Notes: a model not told the origin generated them from the sequence alone. DNA of 20,510 nucleotides from Bdellovibrionota bacterium FG-2 (GCA_051382305.1 JBBCAV010000307.1:1-20510); one strand, 5' to 3'; shown: positions 6,630 to 20,510, counted from the stretch's first letter. Numbers and translations are program-made.

Positions 6630-6646
6630 TTGGTATAGCTGTTGCT
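6630..6646 (+). promoter_or_regulatory. Sigma54 (-24/-12) promoter of cassette 1
   Basis: TTGGTATAGCTGTTGCT has GG-N10-GC spacing with TTGC at -12, about 40 nt upstream of the precursor ATG. Confidence 0.75.
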
Positions 6647-6685
6647 ATGTGCACAGAGTCAAAAATGATGAAGGGGAGATACTTT

Positions 6686-6952
6686 ATGAAGAAAAATTTG
6701 ATTGGTTTTCCGTTTCTTGGTTTGGCTTTGGCGGCTTCGGTGTTCGCAGGAGAGAATCCTATGGGCAAGGCGCAAAGTCTGGAAAGTCGTGTGCGCTTGG
6801 AGCGGGGTTCTCAGAACCCACTGATTGTGGATCTAAGATCCCGGATCGAGGCGATCAATGAAATGAACGGCGAGAATGGAAAAACTTTTATCGACCTTGA
6901 CGCACTGGAAAAGGAAATGAGTCATTCAGGAGTTACTGTTTCATCGGGTTGA
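6686..6952 (+). CDS. Secreted peptide, putative RiPP/signal precursor (88 aa)
   Basis: AAGGGGAG RBS 7 nt before ATG 6686. Sec signal MKKNLIGFPFLGLALAASVFA. Tail EKEMSHSGVTVSSG is Ser/Thr-rich with no Cys. Directly upstream of a LanM-type dehydratase. Confidence 0.78.
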   Translation: MKKNLIGFPFLGLALAASVFAGENPMGKAQSLESRVRLERGSQNPLIVDLRSRIEAINEMNGENGKTFIDLDALEKEMSHSGVTVSSG

Positions 6953-6996
6953 TTTCTTCAGTGGCTTCAGACTAAAATTCACCCTAGTATTCAGAG

Positions 6997-8124
6997 GTGA
7001 CTAAAGAAATTTTAGGGGATTCGCATAATTTCGCACGTCGTGTTCAAAAATCAAACGATGGTAGCATTTCCAAGCCAAGGTGTTTGATTTGGGAAGAGTC
7101 GTTCTTGTCCAAAACAGGGAGAATTCGAGTCCTTATTGATTCGGTTTTTCAAAAGGCAAATCTGCCGTCCCCGATGAGGATGGCACCTGAATTGGAGTTC
7201 CAAGTGTTTTCTGACCCCTTTGTTTCTGGGGTAGTTGAATGCCTAGAGTTAGGGTTTGCCACCTATGAAGACTTGAGCCCAGAGCACTTGTCGCTTATTG
7301 GGGGCGTGATTGCGATCTGCACTTGGTTTGGGATTACAGATTTGCATGTCGACAATCTCGCATTTGGAAAAAATTTAACCCCCGGCGGCCAGGTTACCTT
7401 TTTTCCCATCGATATTGAGTGTATTTTTGAAAAGGTGATGCTCCCTTCGCAGACCAGCCTCGTCTCAAATCCTCACGCACTGAATGGGATTTTTGATAAG
7501 GCTGGTCTTTTTCAGTTAAGGGAACAGGGTGCCTGGGAGAATCCTCTAAACTTTGCTTCACTCCTTGATGGGTTCATGACCGCGATGGACTGCCTGGATA
7601 GTAACGCTCATACCATTTTTGAGTCACTATTGAAAATGAAGGAAGTGCAGGGGGCCCCTATTAGAGTAATTGCTCGTGCCACGAGGACCTATGTTGAATT
7701 GGGACAAGATCGTCATGCCCTACTGGAACCCTCACTTTTGCCTAGTGAGAGTGAGCAGCTTGATCGTGGAGATATTCCGTATTTTTTTAGGACGCTAACA
7801 TCTTCAGCGGTCTTTCATTATTCTTCTTTTGAGGGTGCGATTCAGGCCTCGGGTTGGACAAAAGACAAGAATGGGTATTTTGACGTGCCAGAGGTTTTCA
7901 TCAGCGATCATCTTGAAGGAAAGGTGGATTTGCAGGAATTTTCAAGAAGAAGGCATGCGGCGAGCGCCCTTCAACTTGTGCGATATTTTTCCCCAAAACT
8001 CCAAGGTGACAAATACAGTATTGGGAAAACTACGGTCTCGCTGTCTCATGAGATGATTCAGGTTCGCTATAGGGATCAACCACTATTTGAAACAAACCGA
8101 GCGCCTGTTTTGGAGTCGAAATGA
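6997..8124 (+). CDS. Stand-alone LanM-type dehydratase/kinase domain (DUF4135) without a LanC cyclase domain
   Basis: LanM N-domain motifs in order: GDSHN..R.V, KPR, TDLHVDN, PIDIECIF, IRVIARATRTY, EQLDRGDIPYF. Only 375 aa. Stop overlaps the next start (ATGA). Confidence 0.88.
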   Translation: MTKEILGDSHNFARRVQKSNDGSISKPRCLIWEESFLSKTGRIRVLIDSVFQKANLPSPMRMAPELEFQVFSDPFVSGVVECLELGFATYEDLSPEHLSLIGGVIAICTWFGITDLHVDNLAFGKNLTPGGQVTFFPIDIECIFEKVMLPSQTSLVSNPHALNGIFDKAGLFQLREQGAWENPLNFASLLDGFMTAMDCLDSNAHTIFESLLKMKEVQGAPIRVIARATRTYVELGQDRHALLEPSLLPSESEQLDRGDIPYFFRTLTSSAVFHYSSFEGAIQASGWTKDKNGYFDVPEVFISDHLEGKVDLQEFSRRRHAASALQLVRYFSPKLQGDKYSIGKTTVSLSHEMIQVRYRDQPLFETNRAPVLESK

Positions 8125-9647
8125 GGTCGCTTTTTCTTCTTCTCCTATTTTTTTCTATTAACAGTCTTGCATCTGAAATGAGGTCAGCGAAAATGCTAAA
8201 GCTTTCATCTTCTACCGCTTCTTTTGCTTTTGATCCGACTTTGGCCCGAGGTTATCAGCAGTTTATGCTGCTAGGACTGTTTTGCGATACTCTTGTACGG
8301 TTGGGAGAGTCTGGGGCCATTGAGGCTGGTATCGCCGAATCTTGGAAGTTTTCTCAAGGACCCGGCAGTCATCGGTTTACTTTCAAGCTCAATTCTCAGG
8401 CGCGATTTCATGATGGGCGTAAAATCAATGCTCGCGATGTTGCATGGAGTTTGTCGAGACATTTTTTTTCTAACTCGAGTTCTATCGTGAAAACGTATCT
8501 GGGGGGAGCCCTCAAGAACACTGCAATTTCTCCTTCCAAATTGCTTGAGGCGATTCAGGTGGAAGGTGATGATACTCTGAGTGTCGAGCTTAAGGGTCCT
8601 TATCAGCCTTTTCTGAGTATTTTGGCCTCGCCTGCGTTTTGTGTGTTGCCTCAAGATTTTGACATAAACAAGCCAGTGGGGTCGGGTCCATATTTGGTTG
8701 AGACGGCCTCAAAAGATGGCAAGACTCTTCTGACTTCTGCGCCCGGTTTTATTGGCAATCCCCCTTTCTTTGGACGGATTTCAGTTACAATACTTAAATT
8801 TAAGGATGAGATTTTGAATGCTTTTAAGAAGGGTGACATTGATTTTGCCTTGGGAATTCCATTTTCTGAGTTTAGAGAGGGAGATTTGCCTGCTGATGGA
8901 GCTTTTCAGCACGGAAATAGTCTTTCAATAACCAGCATTTTTTTGAATCTTAATCGTACCATGTTCAAGAGTCGGGATTTTAGAAAAGACTTGGCTGCAC
9001 TTTTCAATTTGGTGAAAAACTCTCCGGGTGCCATGAGTAGTTTTGATCGGTTGCAGACGAGTTTTTTGCCGATTGGTATCATGCCGCAGTCGTATTATGA
9101 GCGCTCTGCAATCAATATGAGCCCCGCCGCGTTTAAAAAGAAGTGGGTGGGGCAGATTCCTGCTGAATTGGATATCGTAATTGCGATGGGTTTTTGCACA
9201 CCTGAATACAAAACAGCGCTCGCTAGTGTTTTTGAACAGGCGGGCCTGAGTTATCGAATACGGGAACTCAAAGGTGAACCTTTGTTGCAGGCGATGTTTA
9301 AAGGCGATTATGATCTTGCTTTTGTTCCCTACGCGGGGCTTCTCCCGGATCCAGACGGATTTTTAGATCTACTCAGTCCTGAAGGGATCATGAAGGCGGG
9401 ACAGATCCCAAGTGCGAAGGTAATACAAGCGCTTGAAAAAGTTCGCTTTGAAAGTGATACTCAATTGCGGCTTAAGGGATATGAGGGGGTCCTCAAGCCC
9501 TTTGAAGAGGACTATTATCTTATTCCTATAGCGCAGCAAAATTTGCCCGTATTGTATCGGAAGGGTTTGCATGTGCCGGATTCTAAGTTTCGGTTTCATC
9601 TGGATTTGAGGGGGATACGATTGGAGAGTGGCAAGCCAAATGGCTAG
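8121..9647 (+). CDS. Family 5 (OppA/DppA-like) solute-binding protein, orphan
   Basis: Signal peptide. FDP, DTLVR..G.I..GIAESW, FTFKL...ARFHDG.KI.A.DV.WSL and PVGSGPY motifs. No permease or ATPase gene adjacent. Overlaps the kinase start. Confidence 0.9.
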   Translation: MRSLFLLLLFFSINSLASEMRSAKMLKLSSSTASFAFDPTLARGYQQFMLLGLFCDTLVRLGESGAIEAGIAESWKFSQGPGSHRFTFKLNSQARFHDGRKINARDVAWSLSRHFFSNSSSIVKTYLGGALKNTAISPSKLLEAIQVEGDDTLSVELKGPYQPFLSILASPAFCVLPQDFDINKPVGSGPYLVETASKDGKTLLTSAPGFIGNPPFFGRISVTILKFKDEILNAFKKGDIDFALGIPFSEFREGDLPADGAFQHGNSLSITSIFLNLNRTMFKSRDFRKDLAALFNLVKNSPGAMSSFDRLQTSFLPIGIMPQSYYERSAINMSPAAFKKKWVGQIPAELDIVIAMGFCTPEYKTALASVFEQAGLSYRIRELKGEPLLQAMFKGDYDLAFVPYAGLLPDPDGFLDLLSPEGIMKAGQIPSAKVIQALEKVRFESDTQLRLKGYEGVLKPFEEDYYLIPIAQQNLPVLYRKGLHVPDSKFRFHLDLRGIRLESGKPNG

Positions 9648-11523
9648 TATGGAAGTTCGATCTCAATCGCTCGCGCGATTTCTTTTTGGGCGCCTTATGC
9701 TTTGGCTGGGGCTGGGATTTATTTTCTTCGCCGTCGTTTCGAGTTTCTATCTGATTCGTTTGACTAGGCAAATTGCTCGAGAACGAGCCGAAGTTTCTCA
9801 ACATTGGTTTACGGCGGGAATTCGAGAGGATGTTTTGTCGGGGATTGATTCTTCGAGCTATCGCAAATGTGAAATGCTTTTTTCTGAGAAATCAGTTTTG
9901 CGGGTCGAAGTCAAAACTTCAGATCGCGTGATATGTAGTCTTGAGAAGCCTAAGTGGGACCGGGGGATAGCCATAGATACGAGTGTTTTTTTTGATAGGC
10001 AGGAGAAAAATAAGGCTGCAACTCTGACTGTTTTTTACGATCAGTCTTTTGTGACGGAGTTGCTAGAGAAGATGCTGGTCTTTTTTGTGATCGTTCTTTT
10101 GCTTTTTCTTCCTGTATTTTATCTGTTGGTTCGTAGAGTAGATCGGGTTCTTTCGAGGCCGGTATCGATATTGGCGAATCGCTTCAAAGAAGGTTTGCCC
10201 GAATTCAGTGTCCCGGAAAAAGCGGAACTTGCACAGTCTGAGATAACTGAAATTCGGGATATTCTTGGAAGTTTCTTGGGTGCCTATTCTCGAATTCAAG
10301 CTTTTCAAGATCAGGCTCTCAGAGATGCGGCGTCAAGAAGTTTGGCCGCCATCGCCACCCAAGTCTCCCACGACATCCGCTCCCCCCTTGCTGCATTGAT
10401 CTCTGTTGCCCACAACAGCCCTGGTCTCCCGGAGGACTCACGCGTGCAGCTCAGAGAAGCCGCGAATCGAATTCGCGATATTGCGAATCAGCTTTTGGAA
10501 AAGAACCGCGAAAAGAAGCAGGAGAAACGCAATGTCTCAGCAGGCGCAGAGGGCCACGCGTCCGAAGATCCTCACTCCGGCGCCGGAGGCGCAGCGCGTC
10601 TTGATGGCATGTCCACCGAAGATCGCTCCACCCAGCTCCTCTCCGCCATCCTCGAGTCCGCTATCTCCTCAAAACGCCTGCAATACGCCGATAACCCACA
10701 AATCAAAATCGAATCACATACCGAGGATAGCGACTCTGCCTACGGACTTTTTGCGACACTTCAGTCGACCGAATTCTCACGCGTGGTTTCGAACCTAATC
10801 AACAACGCGGTCGAAGCTTTTGGTGAAGCGCCCATGCCCTCAAAAAAACCCGGGCGCGTCGACGTTTTCCTTCGAGACGAGCAGGGCAACGCTGTGATTG
10901 AGGTCCGCGATAACGGCAAGGGAATTCCCCCGCACCTTTTGGCAAAAATTGGCGGGCAGGGTGAGACTCATGGCAAGGCGGGCGGCTCGGGCTTGGGCGT
11001 GTATCACGCGAAGAAAACGATCGAAGCGTGGGGGGGCCGGCTTGAGATTGAGTCGCGAGAAGGCCCAAATGAAAACCAGGGCACGACGGTGCGAATGAAA
11101 CTGCCGAAAGCGGCGGCGCCCGGGTGGTTTGCGCCGAAGATTCCGGTGGAGGGGATACGAACCATTGTCGTTTTGGACGACGATCCAGGCATTCACAAAA
11201 TTTGGGAGGGGCGGTTGGCGGCGCGTGTGGGGTCGCGAGAACAGGTGGTCGTGCTGCATTTTTATTCCGCGCAAGAGATTCTTAAATGGTATCGCTCGAG
11301 CCTGGGCATGGGCGAAGCTGGCGATAACCCGCTGTATCTTTGTGATTATGAGCTGGTGGGTTCAAAAGAAACGGGCCTCGACGTTATTGAAAAGTTGGGC
11401 ATAGCTCCGCAAAGCATTTTGGTGACCAGTCGCTACGATGAACCCGCCATTCAAGAACGCTGCGTGCGGTTTGGGGCAAAGCTGTTGCCCAAGGGACTGG
11501 CGCATCGGGTGCCGCTGGGGTGA
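9628..11523 (+). CDS. Membrane hybrid sensor histidine kinase (2 TM, HisKA, HATPase_c, C-terminal receiver-like domain)
   Basis: Two TM helices flank a short periplasmic domain. H-box QVSHDIRSPL, N-box NLINNAVEA, DNGKGI, GSGLGV. Receiver-like VVLDDD...LCDYEL...GLDVIE...LVTSR. Exact start may be 9640 or 9649. Confidence 0.93.
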   Translation: MASQMASMEVRSQSLARFLFGRLMLWLGLGFIFFAVVSSFYLIRLTRQIARERAEVSQHWFTAGIREDVLSGIDSSSYRKCEMLFSEKSVLRVEVKTSDRVICSLEKPKWDRGIAIDTSVFFDRQEKNKAATLTVFYDQSFVTELLEKMLVFFVIVLLLFLPVFYLLVRRVDRVLSRPVSILANRFKEGLPEFSVPEKAELAQSEITEIRDILGSFLGAYSRIQAFQDQALRDAASRSLAAIATQVSHDIRSPLAALISVAHNSPGLPEDSRVQLREAANRIRDIANQLLEKNREKKQEKRNVSAGAEGHASEDPHSGAGGAARLDGMSTEDRSTQLLSAILESAISSKRLQYADNPQIKIESHTEDSDSAYGLFATLQSTEFSRVVSNLINNAVEAFGEAPMPSKKPGRVDVFLRDEQGNAVIEVRDNGKGIPPHLLAKIGGQGETHGKAGGSGLGVYHAKKTIEAWGGRLEIESREGPNENQGTTVRMKLPKAAAPGWFAPKIPVEGIRTIVVLDDDPGIHKIWEGRLAARVGSREQVVVLHFYSAQEILKWYRSSLGMGEAGDNPLYLCDYELVGSKETGLDVIEKLGIAPQSILVTSRYDEPAIQERCVRFGAKLLPKGLAHRVPLG

Positions 11524-11538
11524 AGAGGGGTTGCGCAG

Positions 11539-12011
11539 GCTCTCGGGCGCTGGCAAAGCTTTTTATTCCACATCCGCTTGTATGTATCCCGCCGCACCCG
11601 ACAGCGAATACGGATGGGAGAAGCTGTTCAGCTTTGGCCCTGAAGGGACCTGGAACGGGGGCAAGGAAAAAGCTCCTGCTGCTTTGTCGCGTAAAATCGC
11701 AGGGGCTGCCGATGGCGGCGAAATCGAAATTTGGCCACAAGGATCCAGTGACGGGAAACAAACCCGCTCGTTTCTGTATATTGAAGAGTGCTTAGAGGGC
11801 GTTCGCCGTTTGATGAATTCTGATGTTACAGGCCCTGTCAACATCGGCTCCGAATAGATGGTCAGCGTTTTTGAACCTAGGGCTTTGCCGAAATGATCAT
11901 GAAAACCGCGGAGAAAAAGGTGACGATTAAGAGTATTCCGGGTCCGGTGGGAGTGCGCGGACGCACTTCGATGCCGCTGAATTAAGGGGCAGATGGCGAA
12001 GGGGTGAGTGG
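11539..12011 (+). pseudogene. Decayed GDP-mannose 3,5-epimerase-like SDR fragment, repeat copy A
   Basis: FYSTSACMYP, DSEYGWEKLFS (YxxxK), GKEKAPAALSRK, QTRSFLYIEECLEGVRRLM, PVNIGSE, GPVGVRGR. Carries deletions, a stop and frameshifts, and lacks the N-terminal Rossmann motif. Confidence 0.85.
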
Positions 12012-12334
12012 GGGTGGCAAGCATGAGAGAAGCAAAGCTAAATCGTCGAGGAATTTAGGAGTGGAAACGGTAGGTAGGTGTTGTTCAACAAGCGGCTCCC
12101 GGTTAGCACAAGGCTTGCATCTTGTGTCGTTACGTGAGTTTAGCGTAAATGTGAGGTGACGATTGCCGTCAAAGTGTCTAAAGTTTTGACGATTATGGAG
12201 GTATTAGTTCTTTACTTGAGTTCTTGCGAATAGGGACCGATAATGGATTGTGGGCAAGGTAGCCCCGGTTCTTAAAGTTTTGGCTTGCAATGTTATTGGT
12301 GACGACCTAATACTTGGCTAGAAAGTTTGATTAT

Positions 12335-12394
12335 CACCCCTGGTGCTTCGGTGCCAGGGTGCGAAGCCGCCGAAAGGCGGCTTCTGCGTTTTTT
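12335..12394 (+). ncRNA. Structured RNA leader upstream of the NYN gene (two tetraloop hairpins plus U-tract)
   Basis: CACCCCTGGTGC-TTCG-GTGCCAGGGTG (cUUCGg loop, G-U pairs), then GAAGCCGCC-GAAA-GGCGGCTTC, then T6 immediately before the ATG at 12395. Confidence 0.6.
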
Positions 12395-13033
12395 ATGAGC
12401 AAGAAATTCAAAACGATTGTCTACATAGATGGGTTCAATCTTTATTACGGATGCCTCAAAGGTACTCCGTATCGCTGGCTCAATCTTAGAACGATGGTTG
12501 AAAAAATTCTTCCCAAGAATGAAATTGTTCAAATTAAGTACTTTACTGCTCAGGTGAGCGGTTCTGTGGATGATCCAGATAAGCCACAAAGACAGCTCAC
12601 TTACCAGCGCGCACTTAAGACCATACCAAATCTCGAAATTTACAAGGGGCAGTTTCTGAGTCATCCCGGCTGGAGACCTTTGGCCGATGGAGGCAAGATG
12701 GTCAGAGTTATGTTGACTCAGGAAAAAGGATCAGACGTGAATTTGGCTACTCATGTTTTGGCCGACGCATTTGATAGGAAATTTGACGCGGCTACCATTG
12801 TTAGCAATGACTCAGACCTTAAGGCTCCGTTGGTACTCGTGAGGGATCGATTTAAAAAAGGTGTGGTTTGGATCAATCCTCATTCGGAGAATCCTGATTC
12901 GAAACCCAGCGGTGAGCTGAATCAGGTTGCCTCGATCAAACGAGGAGTTTTTGAAGAGACCTTGAAGGTGAGCCAGTTTTCGACAGAGATGAGTGATGCG
13001 AAAGGGCTCTTTCATAAACCGAAAGGCTGGTAG
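12395..13033 (+). CDS. NYN domain (LabA/DUF88, PIN-like) ribonuclease
   Basis: VYIDGFNLYYG, IKYFTA, QEKGSDVNLA, IVSNDSDL. Start moved to ATG 12395 because the tracked N-terminal extension runs through the hairpins. Confidence 0.92.
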   Translation: MSKKFKTIVYIDGFNLYYGCLKGTPYRWLNLRTMVEKILPKNEIVQIKYFTAQVSGSVDDPDKPQRQLTYQRALKTIPNLEIYKGQFLSHPGWRPLADGGKMVRVMLTQEKGSDVNLATHVLADAFDRKFDAATIVSNDSDLKAPLVLVRDRFKKGVVWINPHSENPDSKPSGELNQVASIKRGVFEETLKVSQFSTEMSDAKGLFHKPKGW

Positions 13034-13040
13034 GGCGTGA

Positions 13041-13627
13041 GCTCTCGGGCGCAGGCATAGTTTTTTATTCCTCATCTGCTTGTATGTATCCCGAGCACAA
13101 TCAATTGGATCCTAACAACCCCAAGTGCTCCGAAGACTCCGCCTATCCCGCCGCACCCGACAGCGAATACGGCTGGGAGAAGTTGTTCAGCTTTGGCCCT
13201 GAAGGGACCTGGAAAGGGGGCAAGGAAAAAGCTCCTGCTGCTTTGTCGCGTAAAATCGCAGGGGCTGCCGATGGCGATGAAATCGAAATTTGGCAATAAG
13301 TAAGAATCAATCACGGGAAACAAACCCGCTCGTTTCTGTATATTGAAGAGTGCTTAGAGGGCGTTCGCCGTTTGATGAATTCGGATTTCACAGGCCCTGT
13401 CAACATCGGCTCCGAATGGATGGTCAGCGTTTTTGAATTTAGGGCTTTGTTGAAATGATTATGAAAAGCGCTGGGAGTCACGATTGAGAGTAAGCCGGGT
13501 CCAGTGGGAGTGCGCGGACGCACTTCGGATAATGCACCGAAGAGTGCAATGATTTGTAAAAAACATAACCGGGCACCTTCGATGCTGTATAAGTGGATCA
13601 AGGGGCAGATGGCGAAGGGGTGAGTGG
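13041..13627 (+). pseudogene. Decayed GDP-mannose 3,5-epimerase-like fragment, repeat copy B (longest)
   Basis: Long near-identical stretches shared with 11539-12011. Retains EHNQLDPNNPKCSEDSAYP. In-frame stop after EIEIWQ. Confidence 0.85.
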
Positions 13628-14347
13628 CGGGTTTGGCGGGTTTAATTTGTAACTAGCGCCACGCCCGGCTTTTGCTGAAGCCGCAAAAACACCTTTTTTT
13701 ACTAACAATTGAAGCTCTCTTGACGCCGTCCGCTCGGAAACGGATCCAAGGGTTTGATAATCGCTATTCGTGATTTGACCATTTTTGCGAACGAACTCAA
13801 TTGCATGGATCTGACGCTCATTTAACCCAAGTTTATCCAGCTGTTCCTTTGACCACTGTTCCCGCCGAAAAATTACGCGAAACCGCGAATGCATGCTGAT
13901 GTCAAATTCAGGAACGGGCAATTGCGACGCACGCATTATCTCTACCATCCGGACAGTTCCTGATCCCCATCGTTCAATTAGCCCAGTATTAAAAAACGCT
14001 TCTGCAATCTTGTCGTTGCGGGGGACGGAGTCATGATCCTGCAATAGGTTCTTGGGTGAAAGCGACGGAGGGAGCGTTCCTGGGTTCCAAATCTCGAGCC
14101 GATCATCGTACAACCGAATTTGAATATTGCCGCGTTCGTTATAGTCGCGATGACAGACCGCATTCAGTAACGCTTCTCGAATTGCATCCAAGGGGTACTC
14201 CCAAATCACCTCTCGGCGCGGTTCCCCTTTGATCGCAAACTCCGTTTTGAAACCAACTATCTCTCTCAGAATGGTGATGTGTCTGCGTCTGGTTTGGAGG
14301 GCAACGAAAAAAGACTCCTGATTTTTAGGCAGGAAGAGCATTTTCAT
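13598..14347 (-). pseudogene. 5'-truncated ATP-binding/RecG C-terminal (HATPase_c_4) plus winged-HTH protein
   Basis: EYPLDAIREALLNAVCHRDY, DDRLEIWNPG, PRN..IA, IERWGSG and a C-terminal HTH (ITNSDY..VSERTASRELQ). The N-terminal domain usual in this family (often AlbA_2/Schlafen) is absent. Confidence 0.75.
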
Positions 14348-14641: not shown

Positions 14642-15013
14642 GTGCCAGGCAAAACATTTGGGACATTTTTCAGAGCGCAGCGGATGAAGCGCAAGCTCAC
14701 GTTACGCAAATTTTGTGAAGATCACGAATTTGATCCTGGGAACATTTCAAAAATTGAGCGGGATCTGTTTAGTGCTCCTCAATCTGATGAAAAGCTCCGA
14801 GAATATGCCAATGCGCTGTTGCTTGTAGAGGGATCGGATGACTGGGTTGAATTTTTTGATCTTGCCTCTGTCTCAAACAAGACGGTAGGCATCGGTAGAA
14901 TCAGCGATGAAACGCTCCTGAGAAAATTGCCCGTTCTGTTTAGGACCCTTGAAAATAAGGAGCTGACAGAAGAAAAGTTAGATCAGTTGATTGAGTTGAT
15001 TCGTAGGTCTTGA
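14642..15013 (+). CDS. XRE-family HTH transcriptional regulator
   Basis: FG.FFRAQRMKRKLTLRKFC...DPGNISKIER HTH signature. GAGG RBS. Confidence 0.88.
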   Translation: MPGKTFGTFFRAQRMKRKLTLRKFCEDHEFDPGNISKIERDLFSAPQSDEKLREYANALLLVEGSDDWVEFFDLASVSNKTVGIGRISDETLLRKLPVLFRTLENKELTEEKLDQLIELIRRS

Positions 15014-15017
15014 AAGT

Positions 15018-15602
15018 ATGACGTCGTTCCTGACTTCCGCTGACATCGACAAGGCCGTGAATGCGTTTTTGCAGAAGTTTCACCCGAGTCGGTCGATCCC
15101 CATCCCCGTAGAAGAGATAATCGAAACTGAAATTGGCGCTGCAATCACAACGATTCGCGGTCTTATGGACGAACTCAGCATAGACGGCTTTTTTTCAAAC
15201 ACCTTTGATGAATTGTTTATAGATTACCACATTTTTATGAATAGAACGCCTAGGGCTCGGTTTACATTTGCACACGAATTGGGCCATTTCTGGCTGCATT
15301 ACGATTACGTCACTGGACAAGAAATTCCCTCCACTCAGTTCTGGAAGCAAATGAAGATGGAGCAGCAGAACCAAGATCACTCGCGCTTCGAAGTTCAGGC
15401 GAATATGTTCGGTGCGCAGCTGCTTATGCCCAAAAAAGAAATACTTCGGGAGTTTAGCCGTATCAAGAAGGCTTACGAAATAAAGGCAAAACAAACCTTT
15501 CCTGATGCAGTCATCGCTCCGTATGTCGCAAAAGAGGTTGCCAAAATATTCATGGTCTCCGAAGAATCTGCCGCGTATCGGTTAAAGGATTTTTTCAAAT
15601 GA
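15018..15602 (+). CDS. ImmA/IrrE family metallo-endopeptidase (Peptidase M78/DUF955)
   Basis: IPIPVEEI, RARFTFAHELGH (HExxH), EVQANMFGAQLLMP, F.VS..AAYRL. Confidence 0.92.
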   Translation: MTSFLTSADIDKAVNAFLQKFHPSRSIPIPVEEIIETEIGAAITTIRGLMDELSIDGFFSNTFDELFIDYHIFMNRTPRARFTFAHELGHFWLHYDYVTGQEIPSTQFWKQMKMEQQNQDHSRFEVQANMFGAQLLMPKKEILREFSRIKKAYEIKAKQTFPDAVIAPYVAKEVAKIFMVSEESAAYRLKDFFK

Positions 15603-15674
15603 GCTGGCAGAAAGTTATTCGGTCATACGCGCCGATCAGGAAATTGAATTTAGGTTGAGAAATGGAGTGAGAGA

Positions 15675-15870
15675 CTCCGAATGGATGGTCAGTGTTTTTG
15701 AACCTAGGGGCTTTGCCGAAATGATCATGAAGATTGCGGAGAAGAAGGTGACGATTAAGAATATTCCGGGTCCGGTGGGAGTGCGCGGACGTACGTCGGA
15801 TAATGCCCCGAAGAGTGCAATGATTCGCAAGAAGCTTGGCTGGGCACCTTCGATGCCGCGGGCGGGGTGA
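15675..15870 (+). pseudogene. Right-half copy C of the epimerase-derived repeat
   Basis: ctccgaatggatggtcag...ccgggtccggtgggagtgcgcggacg...KKLGWAPSMP matches the 3' halves of copies A and B. Confidence 0.82.
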
Positions 15871-15873
15871 GGG

Positions 15874-16105
15874 CTAAGGGTGAACTTCGAGAGGGAGCCT
15901 GGAAAGAATTTCAGAGAAGACTATTTCGGCGATACTGATTGCTATTTGAACTTCACTTTCTTCGATTTCATCGGAAAAACCAGGGTAGCGAGTGGTTGCG
16001 GCGTAGGGATTCAAACAAACGGCCTCGTCAATGAGTTCAGTGAGAGTCGCGTCTTTCTTGAGAGCTAGATCACCATGATAGCTGTCCCCGAGGATCAAGC
16101 GGCAT
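15874..16105 (-). pseudogene. HEPN domain toxin with an internal deletion
   Basis: ATG at 16105 (MPLDP...) overlaps the MNT stop. The C-terminal LNPYAATTRYPG...AISIAE is in another frame, and the central helices are missing. Confidence 0.7.
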
Positions 16106-16412
16106 AGAACTCTTTTCCTTCGTGGATCGCGGTTTCTGGCAACGATCTGATGACTGATTTTCTTTACTCAAATTTTTGCTCGCTAAAGATAATGACGCCA
16201 ATAGGAGCAGGGATGCCTCTGAGGGCGCTACGATAAGTGCGCTGGGCCAATCGATACCCGGGGGCGTCGGCTGTTGGCGTGATTTCAATCACGATCACAA
16301 GGATGTCGTAGTCACTGTTCGCGGAGCCCTCGCCCCGCGCACGCGAGCCAAAAAGAAACACACGTTTGGGGTGAAACTCTGCCACGAGCCAGCCAGGTGG
16401 CGTCAAGTGCAT
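16095..16412 (-). pseudogene. Minimal nucleotidyltransferase (MNT) antitoxin with a premature stop
   Basis: FLFGSRARG...NSDYDILVIV. An in-frame TAA at 16164-16166 is followed by the typical tail RKSVIRSLPETAIHEGKEFYAA* ending at 16095. Confidence 0.8.
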
Positions 16413-16463
16413 AAGCAGGGAAGCTGAGGCCGTGCTATAGTAGGTTCAAGATAGGAGTTTTCT

Positions 16464-16790
16464 ATGGCAAAAGCAGAGATCAAGTTTCCGAAAAAAGGTG
16501 CCGTCTCCAAACTCAGGCAGATGAATAATAGCATGAGACATCAGCCCGTTTCGCCTGAACTGGTGGAATCGCTGAAGAAACGTCCAGAGAAGAATCTCCA
16601 AAGGAGATTGCTACATCGAAGCGTAAGCAGGAACCTAATCTGGGACTCTGAAGGGGCGGTTGGGGTGAAGAAAGGATTCTGTGAGTTAGCGTCTTTCCTT
16701 GCGGCCCATTCGGGAGCGCGCCGGGGCTGTCTCGTGGATCATTTTAGCGCACCCGAATCGTTTTGTCTTTCTTCCCGATCGCTTGCTTGA
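16464..16790 (+). CDS. Small basic hypothetical protein
   Basis: Strong AGGAG RBS before the ATG. No family recognised, and the C-terminal half is doubtful. Confidence 0.4.
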   Translation: MAKAEIKFPKKGAVSKLRQMNNSMRHQPVSPELVESLKKRPEKNLQRRLLHRSVSRNLIWDSEGAVGVKKGFCELASFLAAHSGARRGCLVDHFSAPESFCLSSRSLA

Positions 16791-16810
16791 AGAGGGGTGA
16801 ACTCAGAACT

Positions 16811-17788
16811 ATGAAGATCAGAAACGTTTTACGTTCGCTTCTTGGCGTGACGAACCGCGATCTCAATGAGGCAATTCAAGCGGAGCAAGCAGAAGGGGCT
16901 GCATTCGAACGTTTGCTTTTCCCCATCGCGTGTCTCAAAGATTTTTACCTGATTCAGTTTTATAAGATGACCGATAGAGGAAGGGCGATTGCTGGTTTGG
17001 GCGCAGATTGGGATGAAAAACACGCTTATCGCAAAGCGGTATTTGAATATTTCGAGCGTAAGGCGGTCATTTCGCTAGGTCCCAGCCTTGGCTTCGATTC
17101 AACTAACGGCGTTGGTGCCCACCGATATCCGGCTTTGGCTTTTCGTGCCGGCATGAATGAACTTTTTGAAAGAGATTCATTTTTGCGACATTGGTATTCT
17201 AAGACCCCTTTTTCTAAGATTGAGGGTTCTCTCACATCCTCAAATCGAGTCTGGGTCGACGACATGGATCAGCGAGGATACAGGACCCTGTTCTGCAAGA
17301 CTCATCTTGGTTTTCTCGCCACTACCCTCGTTTTCTTGATCGACCGCAAAACCGGCGGTTTTGCGCTCGGGCTCTCTAGTGGACGGGGAGGGGAGGAAGA
17401 TGCTCAAAAGGCTTTCATGGAGGCTGCGACCAATTTGTTTTTTGGAAATGAGGGGAAGCAAAATGAGGAATTGATCTCTCGGGTTAAGGTCCATGGGATC
17501 ACGTCACTCATTGATCATCGGACCAATTGGCTCTTAATTAATCCGGTTCCCAGCTGGGTACTTTCTCTTGTCGAATCTACCGATCAGCAAATCAGAGTTG
17601 GCAAATTGAGGGACCCGAAAGTGGAGCGCGTAACCCTCGCGATGGCGCCAGTGCCGGTTGTGGGCGCTCGATGCGAAGATTCTTTGAATTTGGTGCTTGG
17701 ACTACCCAACGAACGTGACCTCGCTATACTTCGGCGATCCCAACTTCATCCTATCGACGACGATTTTGTTCCGCATCCAATCCCATAA
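16811..17788 (+). CDS. ycaO: Stand-alone YcaO-family protein (azoline-forming type C-terminus)
   Basis: KAVFEYFER, STNGVGAH...NELFERDS (ATP-binding motifs), KAFMEA, and the Pro-rich C-terminus VPHPIP. Alternative TTG start at 16763. Confidence 0.9.
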   Translation: MKIRNVLRSLLGVTNRDLNEAIQAEQAEGAAFERLLFPIACLKDFYLIQFYKMTDRGRAIAGLGADWDEKHAYRKAVFEYFERKAVISLGPSLGFDSTNGVGAHRYPALAFRAGMNELFERDSFLRHWYSKTPFSKIEGSLTSSNRVWVDDMDQRGYRTLFCKTHLGFLATTLVFLIDRKTGGFALGLSSGRGGEEDAQKAFMEAATNLFFGNEGKQNEELISRVKVHGITSLIDHRTNWLLINPVPSWVLSLVESTDQQIRVGKLRDPKVERVTLAMAPVPVVGARCEDSLNLVLGLPNERDLAILRRSQLHPIDDDFVPHPIP

Positions 17789-17911
17789 TGCATAGTGACA
17801 AGTTGGCGCTTTTTTGTAAAATATACATACTGCCAATGTCCGGATTTTTGGATCAAAAATGTAACCAGCTATTATTACAAATGAACAAATGTTTTTTTAT
17901 CGTGCCGAGGT

Positions 17912-17928
17912 TTGGCCCATACCTTGCG
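17912..17928 (+). promoter_or_regulatory. Sigma54 (-24/-12) promoter of cassette 2
   Basis: TTGGCCCATACCTTGCG has GG-N10-GC spacing with TGGC and TTGC, about 115 nt upstream of the precursor ATG. Confidence 0.68.
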
Positions 17929-18044
17929 TCAATGCGACGACGCAATCGCATATAAATGTTTTGAGCATTTTAGTGTGGTATTGACAAAACTGATAAAACT
18001 ATGGACGCTCGGTATGTCGGCGTTCGAAAAATGAGGGATTGTAT

Positions 18045-18203
18045 ATGAAGAAGATGCTTTTCGTTGCTTTGGCAGTATTGGCTACACTGACTGAGTTCCT
18101 ATTGGCCCGGGGATTCAAAGTCGAGGAATACAAAAGTTCTACAAAAGAGAGCCACATAGCCCGGGATGGGACTTCTACTTGTCGAAGCGTACGTGGTGGG
18201 TGA
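18045..18203 (+). CDS. Unannotated 52-aa signal-peptide-bearing putative RiPP precursor
   Basis: Hand translation: MKKMLFVALAVLATLTEFLLARGFKVEEYKSSTKESHIARDGTSTCRSVRGG*. GAGGG RBS. The stop overlaps an in-frame GTG of the SBP gene (GTGA 18200-18203). Confidence 0.8.
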   Translation: MKKMLFVALAVLATLTEFLLARGFKVEEYKSSTKESHIARDGTSTCRSVRGG

Positions 18204-19714
18204 TCGTTCCTAAGCATAAGTCTAGAATTGCTGTCTTAGGGGTATTTCTCATGGCTTTGAATCAAAGCACACCAATAGAAGCAAGCGTCTCTCTTGCCAA
18301 TCGTGAACCTGAGATTCGGGTGGACCAAAAGCCAACCTTGCCGATGGATCCTATCAGGATTCAGTCTATGGCGGATTACGATCTGCAGTTGTGCCTTTAC
18401 CGCACTTGGTTTGAGTACGATTCGTCTCGAAAGGCAAAGTCGGGAATTGTCTCAGAGTGGTCTTTTGATTCCAAAAGGGGGGTATATCGCTTTACGATAG
18501 CTCAAGATTCCAAGTGGTCAGACGGGAGTCCTGTTCTATCCGGGCAGTTATTGAAAAACCTTAAACGGGCGGTTGCACTTAAGACCACCTTTGGCGAAGC
18601 AGTCCAAGGATTGATCAAGCTTGAAAATGCAAAAGCACTTGATGATCGTAATTTTGAGTTAGAAACTCGAGATCATCAACCTTCTGAGAAATTTTTTCAA
18701 CGAATGGGCTCGAGCTTTCTTGCCCCGGTAAATCCTGACGATTGGGACAAAGACTTTCTTCTTAAAAGTAATCGTCTGACCAGCGGTCCTTATAGAATTG
18801 TTGCAAGTGATGCTCAAGAGCTCAAATTGGAGGCGAATCCAAATGACAAGACTTCGCCGAAAACTCGTCCACTGACTGTTGCCATTCGGTTTCAGCCTGT
18901 CACGGATTTAGCCGCCTTTGTCGAAGGAAAGTCCTGGGCAAATGTGTTGCAGACAGCAACTTTGATGCCCAGCCAACTTGCGGAAAAAGTGAAGAACCGA
19001 AACCTCCCGTATTGGACACGTGGTTTTGATCGTGTATCAAGACTAATGCCCGTAGGGGCGGGAAAAGTACTCGAGGGCCGGAGGAAGTTAGCTTTAGCAT
19101 TTGGCGCTGTGTGGGCCGATTTCAAGGTTTCCTCTTTGCCTTTCAATTCGAGGAAAGCCAATAGCCTCCAGCCCCCGGGCTATCCACTTTTGACTGAGTT
19201 GGATTTTCGCTCTTTTCTAAAAAATGGAGCGGAAAAACTGAAACGATCTGTAAAAATTGTCGCTTTAACTTCTCCTCAGAATGATTTTCAATCGCCGCTT
19301 ATCTTAGCGGCTTTTCAAACCCTTGGGATTCAAGTTACGTGGGTATGGGCAAAATCTTTTGCCGAGTTAGACAATTTAGTTTTACAGGATCTGACTATTG
19401 ATTTTCAATTAGGAAGCTTTGGTGTCGCCGATCCTGAACCAACGACTTGGATGGGCCTAATTCTGACGGAAAACTCCCCATTTGTAGAAGTAACTGCTTC
19501 AGATCTCTCCACATTCAAGAGAATTGCCGCGATCCCCTCGAAAGAGGAGGAAGTTAAGAAATTTCAATTGCTCTTAAGGGAAATGGGGTTGCGCGGGAGC
19601 TATGTTCCCTTATTTCATTTTTCCACTCTGTCATTGGGACAACCGGGTATCAGTTTTGAAAATGTTCAGGAACTTGATGAAACTGTCGACTATTCGAAAC
19701 TCATTGTTAAGTAA
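18200..19714 (+). CDS. Family 5 solute-binding protein, orphan
   Basis: MDP, SGIVSEW, YRFTI...KWSDGSPV, TSGPYRI, YVPLFH. GTG 18200 preferred over TTG 18179. No permease or ATPase adjacent. Confidence 0.88.
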   Translation: MIVPKHKSRIAVLGVFLMALNQSTPIEASVSLANREPEIRVDQKPTLPMDPIRIQSMADYDLQLCLYRTWFEYDSSRKAKSGIVSEWSFDSKRGVYRFTIAQDSKWSDGSPVLSGQLLKNLKRAVALKTTFGEAVQGLIKLENAKALDDRNFELETRDHQPSEKFFQRMGSSFLAPVNPDDWDKDFLLKSNRLTSGPYRIVASDAQELKLEANPNDKTSPKTRPLTVAIRFQPVTDLAAFVEGKSWANVLQTATLMPSQLAEKVKNRNLPYWTRGFDRVSRLMPVGAGKVLEGRRKLALAFGAVWADFKVSSLPFNSRKANSLQPPGYPLLTELDFRSFLKNGAEKLKRSVKIVALTSPQNDFQSPLILAAFQTLGIQVTWVWAKSFAELDNLVLQDLTIDFQLGSFGVADPEPTTWMGLILTENSPFVEVTASDLSTFKRIAAIPSKEEEVKKFQLLLREMGLRGSYVPLFHFSTLSLGQPGISFENVQELDETVDYSKLIVK

Positions 19715-20510
19715 GAACCTTTTTCGCCACGGGCTTTTGCTTGGGTTGCTTTTTTGGTTGGGGGCTCAAATCCCTTTCACGCTTGTTGTGAGTCAGTATT
19801 TTTTCCATCAGGAAATCGCAGCGGACCTTTCGCAACAGGCCTCACTTCAAAAATTACTGACTGAACTTTATGAACAAGGTGCTCGATTTGGAGATATCGT
19901 AAATGCCAGAGGCGCAGTTCTCAAGTTTGGTGCACCCTTTGGCCTCAAAGACTTAGGCGTTTGCCGGAACGGCCGGGAAATCTTGCCTCGACCCTTGGAA
20001 TCTCGTTGTAAGAGTGAGCCTAGACAATGGGTTCCTGTTCAGACTTCTGCGGGAAGGATTGATCTTGAGTTTCAATGGACCCCTCCGTCGATTTCTGACC
20101 ACAGTATTCCCCTTCGTGCAATCGGTGGCAGCGCGATGCTCAGTCTATTTCTGGTTCTTGGGGTGGTCATTCTGCTTAGCAGGAAGCTTTCCACTTTAGT
20201 CTCTAAGCTTGCTGGTCAAATTGCTTCATCCCGATCCTTAGATACCTTGACGCAATTATCCTCAGAGCTCGAAGAACTTACACCTATCAGCTCCGCCCTA
20301 CATATTGCCAAGACTCAGTTAAATGAGTCTTTAAATGAAAATCTGAAACTGAAAACAGAAGTCGCGGTCGGTAATCTCGCCACCCAAGTCTCCCACGACA
20401 TTCCGATCCCCCCTTGCTGCATTGATCTCCGTCGCCCACAACAGCCCTGGTCTCCCGGAGGATTCACGCGTGCAGCTCAGAGAGGCCGCGAATCGGATAC
20501 GCGATATTGC
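19704..20510 (+). CDS. Second membrane sensor histidine kinase (partial, runs off the window; +1 frameshift near 20402)
   Basis: Hand translation from TTG 19704: MLSKNLFRHGLLLGLLFWLGAQIPFTLVV (TM1)...AMLSLFLVLGVVILL (TM2)...LATQVSHDI, then RSPLAALISVAHNSPGLPEDSRVQLREAANRIRDI after removing one base. Confidence 0.88.
   Translation, partial: MLSKNLFRHGLLLGLLFWLGAQIPFTLVVSQYFFHQEIAADLSQQASLQKLLTELYEQGARFGDIVNARGAVLKFGAPFGLKDLGVCRNGREILPRPLESRCKSEPRQWVPVQTSAGRIDLEFQWTPPSISDHSIPLRAIGGSAMLSLFLVLGVVILLSRKLSTLVSKLAGQIASSRSLDTLTQLSSELEELTPISSALHIAKTQLNESLNENLKLKTEVAVGNLATQVSHDIPIPPCCIDLRRPQQPWSPGGFTRAAQRGRESDTRYC
20377..20510 (+). repeat. Near-identical copy of 10352-10484 (HisKA coding region)
   Basis: Manual alignment gives about 7 substitutions, all synonymous, plus 1 inserted base in about 133 bp. 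No similarity is visible upstream of tcgccacccaagtc. Confidence 0.92.

Follow-up and report, generated by a model that had tools for sequence, protein, structure and literature searches.

In CBP–ChiS of Vibrio, LuxP–LuxQ and TorT–TorS, a (hybrid) histidine kinase has as its ligand-binding partner a periplasmic binding protein encoded by a neighbouring gene. Autoinduction by modified peptides is represented by AgrD/AgrB/AgrC, ComX/ComQ/ComP and, for nisin, NisK/NisR, in which a ribosomally made precursor is modified by its own dedicated enzyme and the product is sensed by a histidine kinase. CBP is a Pfam SBP_bac_5 protein working with the hybrid kinase ChiS, and the table of the review that covers it appears to contain no peptide-binding solute-binding protein (SBP) feeding a sensor kinase (PMC8050422). 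A third relevant group, the bufferins, consists of RiPPs that are modified in the cytoplasm, exported by Sec and active in the periplasm, with no dedicated exporter; the portions of the source dealing with them describe no SBP or kinase partner (PMC11626156). The window analysed here, a 20,510 nt stretch of DNA from Bdellovibrionota bacterium FG-2, encodes two cassettes in which, as in the Vibrio CBP–ChiS arrangement, an SBP gene adjoins a kinase gene and, as in the Gram-positive autoinducer systems, a precursor, a modifying enzyme and a histidine kinase occur together.

Gene organization

The features of the two cassettes are as follows.

6631..6645, + strand: sigma-54-type promoter motif (TGG-N8-TTGC class; motif scan), 55 nt upstream of the cassette-1 peptide gene
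6686..6952, + strand: putative cassette-1 precursor peptide, 88 aa (sequence reading, homologous small ORFs)
6997..8124, + strand: stand-alone LanM-type mini-dehydratase, DUF4135 core, no cyclase domain, 375 aa (PF13575, E = 2.3e-10)
8121..9647, + strand: orphan family-5 periplasmic binding protein 1 (SBP1), 508 aa, with signal peptide (PF00496, E = 6.9e-36)
9628..11523, + strand: hybrid sensor histidine kinase 1, 631 aa (HATPase_c, E = 8e-23; paralogue alignment)
16811..17788, + strand: stand-alone enzyme of YcaO type, 325 aa (ATG at 16811), carrying ExxER motifs and PHPIP at the C-terminus (PF02624, E = 1.8e-10)
17913..17927, + strand: sigma-54-type promoter motif (motif scan), 132 nt upstream of the cassette-2 peptide's ATG (18045)
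18045..18203, + strand: putative cassette-2 precursor peptide, 52 aa from an ATG behind GAGGGA (sequence reading, homologue on contig C271)
18179/18200..19714, + strand: orphan family-5 periplasmic binding protein 2 (SBP2; PF00496, E = 1.1e-15)
19602..20510, + strand: N-terminal portion of sensor histidine kinase 2, truncated at the contig end (likeness to kinase 1)

All eight protein-coding parts lie on the + strand. Cassette 1 runs from the peptide through the mini-dehydratase and SBP1 to the hybrid kinase; cassette 2 runs from the YcaO enzyme through the peptide and SBP2 to the truncated kinase. ORF analysis and Pfam/NCBIfam matches confirm the observation from which this work started, that the same four-part set is present twice in the window. 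The two cassettes are parallel in their parts but not in their order, the peptide preceding the maturase in cassette 1 and following it in cassette 2. As originally noted, the window ORFs include no ABC permease, ABC ATPase, protease or immunity-like gene. The source assembly is fragmented (85% complete, 4.4% contamination), so some apparent paralogues, such as C271, may be strain variants.

Precursor peptides and maturases

The cassette-1 peptide ORF has a GGGGAG ribosome site 7 nt ahead of its ATG. Its product begins with a Sec-type signal peptide, continues through a helical stretch to a leader motif of the I-D-L-D-x-L-E type and closes with an 11-residue tail that is rich in Ser, Thr and Gly and contains no Cys; it gave no significant Pfam or NCBIfam family match. 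Homologous small ORFs with the same leader motif and variable tails lie directly upstream of the DUF4135 genes in three further loci (L029, L075 and L028), and the motif [IVLMF]-D-[LMIVF]-[DE]-x-[LIVM]-E, followed by a variable Ser/Thr/Ala/Gly tail of 12–25 aa, occupies this position in 11 of 29 DUF4135 loci outside the source genome. The cores of this type mostly contain no Cys and few His. Two of the four precursors first examined (L075 and L028) have no signal peptide, and of these two loci only L028 has an ABC transporter nearby.

The mini-dehydratase scores above the Pfam cut-off for DUF4135 (PF13575; 40.6 bits against 29), with a match confined to residues 187–238, and far under that of the LanM model TIGR03897 (E = 2.7e-9; 35 bits against 304). 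Its 92 homologues are 308–469 aa in length, and their family profile matches CylM (5dzt; E = 2e-5) and LicM2. The predicted structure (pLDDT 89.8) gave the same two enzymes as the top Foldseek hits (1.8e-7 and 7.2e-6, respectively), followed by lipid kinases. Across 44 family members there is little or no variation at the positions equivalent to CylM D252/H254, K274, D347/H349/N352 and R506/T512, while the equivalent of D364 was placed solely via the LicM2 alignment and residue spacing; the roles of the CylM residues in phosphorylation and phosphate elimination have been described (PMC4550811). The enzyme thus retains the DUF4135 core of LanM with its catalytic residues and shares the lipid-kinase-like dehydratase core of the class II LanM proteins CylM and LicM2. 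In contrast to these proteins of ∼900–1000 aa, it has no counterpart of the first ∼245 residues and no LanC-type cyclase domain; the Pfam scan found no LANC_like match. Judged from its sequence, the cassette-1 tail also lacks the Cys from which a LanM core forms thioether rings, so that no lanthionine is possible in this cassette. One published mining of DUF4135 proteins left out those of <500 aa (PMC10676384).

The cassette-2 maturase exceeds the cut-off for PF02624 (41.1 bits against 25.7), over profile positions 113–227 only. The profile of its family matches the M. jannaschii YcaO 6pe3 (E = 1.5e-12), the top Foldseek hit of its model (pLDDT 86.3) was the M. kandleri YcaO 6ci7 (2.3e-11) and the ATP/Mg-binding ExxER motifs are kept across the 17 YcaO sequences aligned. 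Model and motifs together indicate a member of the YcaO superfamily, with the fold and ExxER motifs common to other stand-alone YcaOs, namely the McrA-thioamidating archaeal enzymes and the cyclodehydratases McbD and LynD. Its proline-rich C-terminal end resembles the PxPxP motif of the cyclodehydratases. A SagD-type TOMM azoline cyclodehydratase is not indicated: the score against TIGR03604 (E = 2.4e-11; 43 bits) is under the cut-off of 219, and the window ORFs include no E1-like, TfuA, dehydrogenase or other partner gene. The two maturases are therefore of different types, as had been proposed, DUF4135/LanM-type in cassette 1 and YcaO in cassette 2, each with catalytic motifs and fold kept; both look competent as enzymes.

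The N-terminus of the cassette-2 peptide is hydrophobic and could serve as signal peptide or as anchor, and the tail contains one Cys, nine residues short of the end. A small ORF at the equivalent place on C271 shares 80% identity with this peptide. An ORF that ends at the SBP start and carries a Cys in its last 16 residues was found in 14 of 19 other SBP–YcaO–kinase loci, compared with 78 of 232 antisense controls for such a Cys. No convincing precursor was found at three YcaO loci of the source genome (C328, C216 and C114).

Binding proteins and kinases

Both SBPs can be assigned to family 5 on the basis of SBP_bac_5 matches and signal peptides read from the sequence. The start of SBP1 overlaps the dehydratase stop (ATGA), and SBP2 likely begins at the GTG at 18200, overlapping the TGA of the cassette-2 peptide. 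The adjacent permease and ATPase genes of Opp/Dpp/Nik-type systems are absent from the window for both, in keeping with the proposal that they work without a transporter, and of 33 related SBP-plus-maturase loci one has an ABC ATPase motif within 8 kb (a regular-expression test only). The best NCBIfam models for SBP1 were NikA (E = 1.9e-24), CntA (8.3e-16) and Opp-type binding proteins, all under their cut-offs; its nearest neighbours in this collection are nickel- and metallophore-binding proteins rather than Opp. For SBP2, which is 74% identical to its C271 paralogue, and for the SBP of contig C107, Opp-type models score about as well or better. SBP1 clusters with the SBPs of other DUF4135 loci (clade support 99%), and across the SBP tree the maturase class changes 11 times, against a mean of 22.6 for shuffled labels; as few as 11 changes were reached in 0 of 200 shuffles. 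Since kin share labels, this shows that the cassettes are inherited as units and not that their parts have co-evolved.

Kinase 1 carries a HATPase_c domain, a HisKA match under the cut-off (E = 2.3e-4; 21.6 bits against 26.9) and two hydrophobic transmembrane segments around a periplasmic loop of ∼105 aa. Alignment of 12 paralogues shows no variation in the H-box or at the receiver-type positions D517/D518, D573, T600 and K622, consistent with a hybrid kinase that ends in a receiver-like domain; as Pfam Response_reg was not reported, the receiver assignment rests on the alignment. The paralogue family occupies 14 places in the genome at E ≤ 1e-62. Kinase 2 starts between 19602 and 19677, and its reading frame shifts just past the H-box, near 20396. 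Translated in the +1 frame, the final ∼115 nt give protein identical to kinase 1, and the frame change may be an assembly artefact at a repeat.

Recurrence of the cassette

The source genome contains 13 adjacent pairs of family-5 SBP and kinase genes, beside which lie YcaO enzymes (six), radical-SAM enzymes (five) and a DUF4135 dehydratase (one). The radical-SAM enzymes comprise three rSAM/SPASM proteins, a YydG-like rSAM with a GNAT and a B12-rSAM (on C123). A second B12-rSAM lies ∼1 kb from the pair on C129, on the opposite strand.

In public genomes, the kinase family has 570 confirmed loci, mostly in Bdellovibrionota and Elusimicrobiota, of which the best 80 were examined. A family-5 SBP adjoins the kinase in 32 of the 61 of these with at least 2.5 kb of upstream DNA, leaving about half of the examined family without one, and in ten of 11 cases in the source genome. 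Upstream DNA of at least 5 kb is available for 48 of the best 80. In this set a maturase (YcaO, DUF4135 or rSAM) is present at 14 of the 23 loci that have an SBP and at one of the 25 that do not. This tabulation of genes upstream of kinase homologues, suggested together with the original prediction, came out largely in its favour: leader-like small ORFs are conserved beside the pairs, while nine of the 23 SBP-bearing loci have no recognised maturase, so that the module also works with other enzymes or none. Other neighbours at kinase loci include methyltransferases, hydrolases and a Peripla_BP_6 protein.

Reverse searches from the maturases covered 401 genomes of the host's phylum. Mini-DUF4135 proteins occur in 33 of them, and 23 of the 29 loci outside the source genome touch a family-5 SBP gene (12) or a kinase gene (11), with six touching neither. 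The YcaO family occurs in 148; 18 of 29 such loci touch both genes, eight the SBP only, two the kinase only and one neither. This linkage in 28 of 29 loci sets the family apart from known stand-alone YcaOs, and the YcaO gene is usually flanked by the SBP gene on one side and the kinase gene on the other, the ends overlapping. Gene content, catalytic residues, folds and precursors are thus conserved and their linkage recurs, at 13 places in one genome and in many others, beyond chance. A literature search found no description of this architecture, and we regard the cassette as widespread but undescribed.

Output elements

Three elements extend the original prediction: sigma-54-type motifs before both peptides, sigma-54 activators near the cassettes and a phosphotransfer candidate. 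Both motifs in the window may act as promoters. The strict motif occurs 44 times in the 2.79 Mb of loci scanned, or once per ∼63 kb. Besides the two window peptides, it precedes the YcaO operon of C133, L177 and the C271 peptide, where it sits in the corresponding position (L023 position 1298); it is present in just three of 16 candidate-precursor upstream regions and one of 19 further regions. Of 81 public kinases, 23 have an NtrC-type (sigma-54) activator within 8 kb and ten have nearby a small protein of ∼65 aa that carries an invariant His; only three such small proteins were detected in the source genome. A weak hhalign match to the kinase H-box (E = 3e-4, probability 40%) makes this small protein a phosphotransfer candidate. 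Candidate genes for both proteins lie beside sister cassettes; the window encodes neither a phosphotransfer protein nor a response regulator.

Functional implications

Comparative genomics partly supports the original interpretation of private signalling channels, and we lean, at slightly better than even chances, towards each cassette being a self-contained circuit of peptide ligand and receptor. The small gene would encode a precursor, and the ATP-dependent enzyme of the same cassette would modify the precursor's C-terminal tail in the cytoplasm, the mini-dehydratase converting Ser/Thr to dehydro-residues in cassette 1 and the YcaO activating the backbone at Cys to give a thiazoline or thioamide in cassette 2. 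The product may reach the periplasm through its Sec-type signal peptide, with no dedicated exporter, and there be captured by its modified tail by the transporter-less SBP, which would dock on the short periplasmic loop of the two-TM kinase. The kinase, responding to the peptide, would pass phosphate from His to Asp internally, probably then to the small His-containing protein and on to an NtrC-type activator, which could fire sigma-54 promoters such as those before both peptide genes and so provide positive feedback. The signal may be shared between cells or act on its producer alone. Exported products of 30–75 aa are too large to diffuse from a diderm cell and should need help to cross the outer membrane. 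This speaks against classical quorum sensing and makes the 'quorum-sensing-like' label the weakest part of the reading.

Other roles for the same genes can be envisaged. The SBP–kinase pair might respond to a cue from outside, such as oligopeptides of environmental or prey origin, with the peptide cluster as its regulated output, for example an antimicrobial or envelope-active product. Lantibiotic clusters usually include a two-component regulator, family-5 SBPs commonly bind unmodified oligopeptides (as Pfam and NCBIfam names reflect), about half of the kinase family has no maturase and many of the hosts are Bdellovibrionota. We nevertheless consider this unlikely, given that maturases are nearly confined to SBP-bearing kinases, that the YcaO gene mostly sits between and overlaps the two receptor genes, that the cassette-2 peptide gene is translationally coupled to the SBP, that SBP lineages track maturase class and that the cassettes show no linkage to an exporter, leader protease or immunity gene.

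Azolines and thioamides bind metals well, and a periplasmic metallophore or buffer, with the SBP binding metal or metal-loaded peptide and the kinase reporting metal status, would imply homeostasis rather than communication. The closest curated neighbours of SBP1, NikA and the staphylopine-binding CntA (both under cut-offs), the Cys-, His- and Gly-rich peptide tails and the retention of products of this size in the periplasm fit such a role, as does the precedent of the Sec-exported, copper-binding bufferins, in the account given of them in PMC11626156. The cassette-1 tail and most DUF4135-type cores, however, have no Cys and few His, SBP2 and the C107 SBP fit Opp-type models at least about equally, no metal transporter or efflux gene is linked (an ABC ATPase is near one of 33 loci) and 13 cassettes with very different cores seem more than metal sensing in one genome needs; this role appears quite improbable. 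Far less credible is that the enzymes modify the SBP or kinase itself, as YcaO does McrA, with the small ORFs incidental. The nearest solved YcaO relatives are indeed archaeal enzymes that thioamidate McrA, the C328 copy matches NCBIfam methan_mark_1 and three YcaO loci have no clear precursor, but the small ORFs are conserved at fixed positions with a leader-like motif and variable tail, and three unrelated enzyme classes in one slot fit a common peptide substrate better than a protein.

Comparison with known systems

The peptide ligand/receptor circuit favoured here would differ from each of its closest relatives. In CBP–ChiS, LuxP–LuxQ and TorT–TorS the partnership of binding protein and kinase is established, whereas here it is represented by gene adjacency and overlap only; their ligands (chitin oligosaccharides, AI-2 and TMAO) are made elsewhere, whereas the presumed ligand here is a modified ribosomal peptide made within the cassette; and CBP also serves a transporter, whereas the present SBPs are orphans. 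The bufferins share the Sec signal peptide on the precursor but employ MNIO/DUF2063 enzymes and bind copper; the Pfam scan of the window ORFs found no MNIO (DUF692) enzyme or DUF2063 partner, the maturases being of other kinds. The predicted YcaO substrates, exported small proteins with a Cys near the C-terminus, are unlike those of known YcaOs. In the Gram-positive systems, the kinase binds the peptide directly through a polytopic membrane domain and export relies on dedicated proteins, while in these diderm hosts an SBP is interposed and export is probably by Sec. A further departure from the Gram-positive scheme is that the class of modifying enzyme is interchangeable and that a phosphorelay appears to carry the output to sigma-54.

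Organization of the two cassettes

Open reading frames and family profile matches bear out the original prediction of two four-part sets, each comprising a small peptide, a maturation enzyme, a family-5 periplasmic binding protein (SBP5; SBP_bac_5, PF00496) and a kinase. Both sets lie on the forward strand of the window; likewise, no transporter, protease or immunity gene is found among its ORFs. The genome assembly is fragmented (433 contigs, 4.34 Mb, 85% complete, 4.4% contamination) and the window is an entire contig (C307); the genome has its best relatives among the Bdellovibrionota.

Features of the window (coordinates, strand where assigned, description)
256-1008: family-2 glycosyltransferase (PF00535, E 5.9e-32)
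2355-4031, -: 558-aa multi-TM protein adjoining the glycosyltransferase, without a Pfam match
6631-6645, +: sigma-54-type promoter motif of cassette 1, 55 nt before the ATG of the first peptide gene
6686-6952, +: cassette-1 peptide, 88 aa; strong ribosome site, Sec-type signal peptide, Ser/Thr/Gly tail
6997-8124, +: DUF4135 protein, 375 aa (PF13575, E 2.3e-10)
8121-9647, +: SBP1, family 5 (PF00496, E 6.9e-36)
9628-11523, +: kinase 1, 631 aa; two TM segments, H-box, HATPase_c (8e-23), C-terminal receiver-like domain
12314-13033: NYN-domain protein
13598-14347, -: HATPase_c_4/RecG-C-terminal-like protein
14642-15602: XRE-type HTH and IrrE/ImmA peptidase pair
16811-17788, +: YcaO protein of cassette 2 (PF02624, E 1.8e-10)
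17913-17927, +: sigma-54-type motif of cassette 2, 132 nt before the ATG of the second peptide gene
18045-18203, +: cassette-2 peptide, 52 aa; hydrophobic N-terminus, tail with a single Cys
18200 (probable GTG start), +: SBP2, its start overlapping the stop of the cassette-2 peptide
To the contig end (20510) and beyond, +: kinase 2, with a shift of reading frame directly after the H-box

Five further ORFs of 150-170 aa (1290-5991) gave no family match. The last ∼115 nt of kinase 2 (20390-20510) code for a stretch identical to kinase 1, and the frame change may be an artefact of assembly, a collapsed repeat at the contig end, rather than a real pseudogene.

Between the cassettes, a segment of ∼430 nt is present in three partial direct copies that are 84-96% identical (11539-11970, 13041-13585 and 15708-15856) and bracket the NYN-domain protein, the RecG-like protein and the XRE-IrrE/ImmA pair. 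Judged by its translation, the forward strand of the repeat resembles part of a gene for an NAD-dependent sugar epimerase/dehydratase, and the copies look like serial insertions into one target gene or duplications of it.

Recurrence of the cassettes

Kinase 1 has matches at 14 places in its own genome at E ≤ 1e-62, and Pfam searches of this genome returned 20 matches to SBP_bac_5, six to YcaO (five of them above the cut-off) and one to DUF4135. Mapping these family matches onto ORF maps gave 13 adjacent SBP5-kinase pairs. A YcaO protein accompanies the pair in six loci (contigs C307, C271, C133, C328, C216 and C114), a radical SAM/SPASM enzyme in three (C107, C168 and C206) and the single DUF4135 protein in the window. 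Other pairs have a YydG-like radical SAM enzyme and a GNAT protein (C102), a B12-radical SAM enzyme (C123; a second is encoded ∼1 kb away from the C129 pair, on the other strand) or a creatininase and an amidohydrolase (C166) as neighbours. C271 repeats cassette 2, small ORF included, at 74-80% protein identity, possibly as a paralogue and possibly as a strain variant. In C123 (locus L017, 2446-5130), an 894-aa protein downstream of the B12-binding radical SAM enzyme carries an SBP5 domain in its C-terminal half (residues 459-814), its ∼450 N-terminal residues having no Pfam match.

A scan of public genomes, one per species, with the two most conserved kinase motifs confirmed at least 570 loci of the kinase family. 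The best 80 of these, in which ORFs were called, clustered and labelled by profiles built on the own-genome copies, belong mostly to Bdellovibrionota and Elusimicrobiota; Myxococcota and 'delta' bins contribute a few. Among these best 80, an SBP5 is adjacent to 32 of the 61 kinases with at least 2.5 kb of upstream sequence and is present for 23 of the 48 with at least 5 kb. In the latter set a maturase (YcaO, seven; DUF4135, two; radical SAM, seven) occurs in 14 of the 23 loci with an SBP5 and in only one of the 25 without, a comparison that is descriptive and carries no formal test, since the loci are interrelated and were picked by similarity to kinase 1. Methyltransferases, α/β-hydrolases, an acyltransferase, peptidases and a Peripla_BP_6 protein take the place of the three enzyme types in other loci, and one of 33 loci with both SBP and maturase has an ABC ATPase motif no more than 8 kb away. 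Of the phylum's 401 genomes, 193 contain the kinase family at E ≤ 1e-60, a figure that gives presence only and not copy number because two candidates were scored per genome.

Reverse searches of the same 401 genomes started from the enzymes instead of the kinase. Mini-DUF4135 proteins were found in 33 genomes, representing 27 of 203 genera; of the 29 loci outside the FG-2 genome, 12 have an SBP5 no farther than 1.5 kb away, 11 have a kinase of this family and six have neither, three of the latter being longer forms (554-596 aa). The YcaO family is represented in 148 genomes from 95 of the 203 genera, and its best 29 loci from other genomes have both SBP5 and kinase in 18 cases, SBP5 only in eight, kinase only in two and neither in one. 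The commonest gene order in YcaO loci is SBP, YcaO, kinase, with overlapping gene ends.

The predicted maturation enzymes

For the DUF4135 protein there are 92 homologues, 308-469 aa long, some of them bearing names from Fluviispira and Silvanigrella. According to the CylM study, residues Asp252/His254 and Arg506/Thr512 act in phosphate elimination and Lys274 and Asp347/His349/Asn352 in phosphorylation (PMC4550811); a profile search and an alignment of 44 homologues show the matching positions to be invariant or nearly so. The predicted model (pLDDT 89.8) matches the structures of CylM and LicM2 first, followed by lipid kinases. Compared with LanM, the protein is missing the ∼245 N-terminal residues as well as the cyclase domain, and the tail of its putative cassette-1 substrate contains no Cys; it is therefore regarded as a dehydratase-only relative and not as a lanthipeptide synthetase. 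A DUF4135 mining study left out proteins shorter than 500 aa (PMC10676384).

The YcaO protein keeps both ExxER motifs and ends in PHPIP. Its profile matches Methanocaldococcus jannaschii YcaO best (E 1.5e-12), and among the matches of its model (pLDDT 86.3) are the YcaOs of Methanopyrus kandleri, M. jannaschii and Escherichia coli and the cyclodehydratases LynD, TruD and McbD. The product would be an azoline or a thioamide, the sequence being compatible with either. Going by conserved residues and models, both enzymes look active.

Candidate precursor peptides

The window DUF4135-type peptide shares a leader motif, hydrophobic-D-hydrophobic-(D/E)-x-hydrophobic-E, with those of three other loci (L029, L075 and L028). 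The tails that follow are variable, 11-25 residues long (12-25 in loci outside the FG-2 genome) and rich in Ser, Thr, Ala and Gly. A small ORF with this motif lies directly upstream of the DUF4135 enzyme in 11 of 29 loci from other genomes, some of them belonging to organisms already represented among the public loci. Of the first four precursors of this type, those of the window and L029 have a signal peptide; those of L075 and L028 are ∼31-aa peptides without one, and L028 contains ABC transporter genes downstream.

For the YcaO type, the 1.3 kb upstream of the SBP was taken for 19 loci. In 14 of these the SBP start marks the end of an ORF whose last 16 residues include a Cys; by the same Cys criterion, 78 of 232 antisense ORFs qualify. 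In many cases the Cys is the second-last residue and follows a Gly, with an L-x-x-(R/K)-G motif about ten residues earlier, and similar Cys-tailed ORFs occur in loci L043, L051, L055, L067 and L103. The DNA upstream of the SBPs in three of the own YcaO loci (C328, C216 and C114) contains no convincing precursor. In two SBP-YcaO-kinase loci (L185 and L186) the Cys-tailed ORF is replaced by an open frame of 160-175 aa ending in a common Trp-Thr-Glu-Leu-acidic-Gly-Asp-Val motif without Cys; this may represent a different substrate class of the same YcaO family.

In the radical SAM loci C107 (L013, 7965-8327) and C168 (L014, 7939-8295), a secreted ORF of 118-120 aa with a Gly-rich, Trp-containing end lies between the radical SAM and SBP genes and fits better as the precursor than an ORF of ∼75 aa between the sigma-54 activator and radical SAM genes of C107, C168 and C206. 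The latter was rejected on account of its H-box-like helix with an invariant His and its lack of both a signal peptide and a variable tail. A secreted small ORF with the same Gly-rich, Trp-containing C-terminus is found in a YcaO locus (L169), so that one kind of tail may be served by more than one enzyme class. Both window peptides and the 120-aa ORF of C107 gave no significant Pfam or NCBIfam match, nor did the small ORF of C133 in NCBIfam. Taken on their sequences, the small ORFs are putative conserved precursors.

Binding-protein lineages and the output side

A quick maximum-likelihood tree was built from 43 SBPs linked to kinases, SBP2 and the C271 SBP not being among them. On it the labels YcaO, radical SAM, DUF4135 and none require 11 changes; shuffled labels require 22.6 on average, and none of 200 shuffles came down to 11. 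SBP1 falls in a group of six (99% support) with other DUF4135-linked SBPs. Since relatives share labels, the tree shows inheritance of whole cassettes; matched SBP specificities would agree with it but are not proved by it. Co-folding of SBP1 (residues 19-508, 32-row alignment) with the unmodified mature cassette-1 peptide (67 aa) gave a score of 0.01 and a mark of 0.32, values that speak neither for nor against binding, the peptide being unmodified and its fold uncertain.

The output side extends the picture given by the original prediction. Of 81 public kinases, 23 have a REC-AAA+ sigma-54 activator no more than 8 kb away, and such an activator also adjoins the own cassettes C107, C168, C206, C133 and C328. 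Next to it, in ten public and three own loci, is a protein of ∼65 aa with one invariant His, which matches the kinase H-box (hhalign E 3e-4, probability 40%) and, weakly, Pfam HisKA. We infer that it may be a histidine phosphotransfer protein joining the hybrid kinase to the activator. In eight public loci (cluster c3; L050, 4802-5866, and seven others) a short protein of ∼350 aa with a Sigma54_DBD match (E 1.3e-12) stands beside the kinase and may be a cassette-specific sigma-54 paralogue. Among the window ORFs, neither the His protein nor the activator is encoded. The strict sigma-54 promoter pattern is rare (44 occurrences in 2.79 Mb); besides the sites before both window peptides, it is present in C271 at the position matching cassette 2 and ahead of the C133 operon and the L177 precursor, and is missing from 13 of 16 and 18 of 19 of the other loci. 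With so few loci carrying it, the motif was abandoned as a general feature of the cassettes and retained for the window.

Functional implications

The most economical reading of the cassettes is that of a peptide ligand/receptor circuit. The modular peptide signalling originally proposed gains support from the recurrent linkage of its parts; its weakest point is the cell-to-cell, quorum-sensing-like component, as the exported products, by their size, would need help to get out of a diderm cell; an autocrine or periplasmic role, or release of processed fragments, has therefore to be assumed. It is also possible that the cassettes sense metallophores, that the SBP-kinase pair is the regulator of a peptide cluster or that the system serves protein maturation.

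Within the ligand/receptor reading, a bolder and rather doubtful extension is that the cassettes are plug-and-play orthogonal channels, each differently modified ribosomal peptide having its own SBP/kinase receptor, with a dozen or more in parallel per genome and processed fragments of the exported peptides passing between cells. Gram-negative lineages, here Bdellovibrionota and Elusimicrobiota, would then have their first described quorum-sensing language that is RiPP-coded and SBP-received.

The analysis defines several unannotated families: a LanM-type dehydratase of 350-400 aa without a cyclase, together with its leader-motif precursors, and a YcaO subfamily inside sensor operons, with putative substrates carrying a Cys near the C-terminus. 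To these are added radical SAM cassettes with Gly/Trp-tailed secreted putative substrates and the ∼65-aa histidine phosphotransfer candidate. If the receptors are specific, they would offer ready-made orthogonal ligand/sensor pairs for synthetic biology, and the SBPs could serve as bait for the natural products of orphan RiPP enzymes.

Kinases that sense modified-peptide autoinducers are found in Gram-positive bacteria, where signalling by modified ribosomal peptides is textbook knowledge; to our knowledge, such signalling is nearly unknown in diderm bacteria. The cassettes would be a conserved multi-copy architecture that could fill this gap, and they come from phyla that have been little studied, predators and groundwater lineages among them. 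Full-text searches of openly accessible papers found no description of the cassette architecture. Individual elements have precedents: Sec-exported RiPPs are known as bufferins (PMC11626156), and in CBP-ChiS a family-5 SBP works with a hybrid kinase (PMC8050422). The novelty lies in how these parts are combined, in an enzyme slot with interchangeable occupants and in the numbers involved, a dozen or more cassettes in one genome and hundreds of loci across two phyla.
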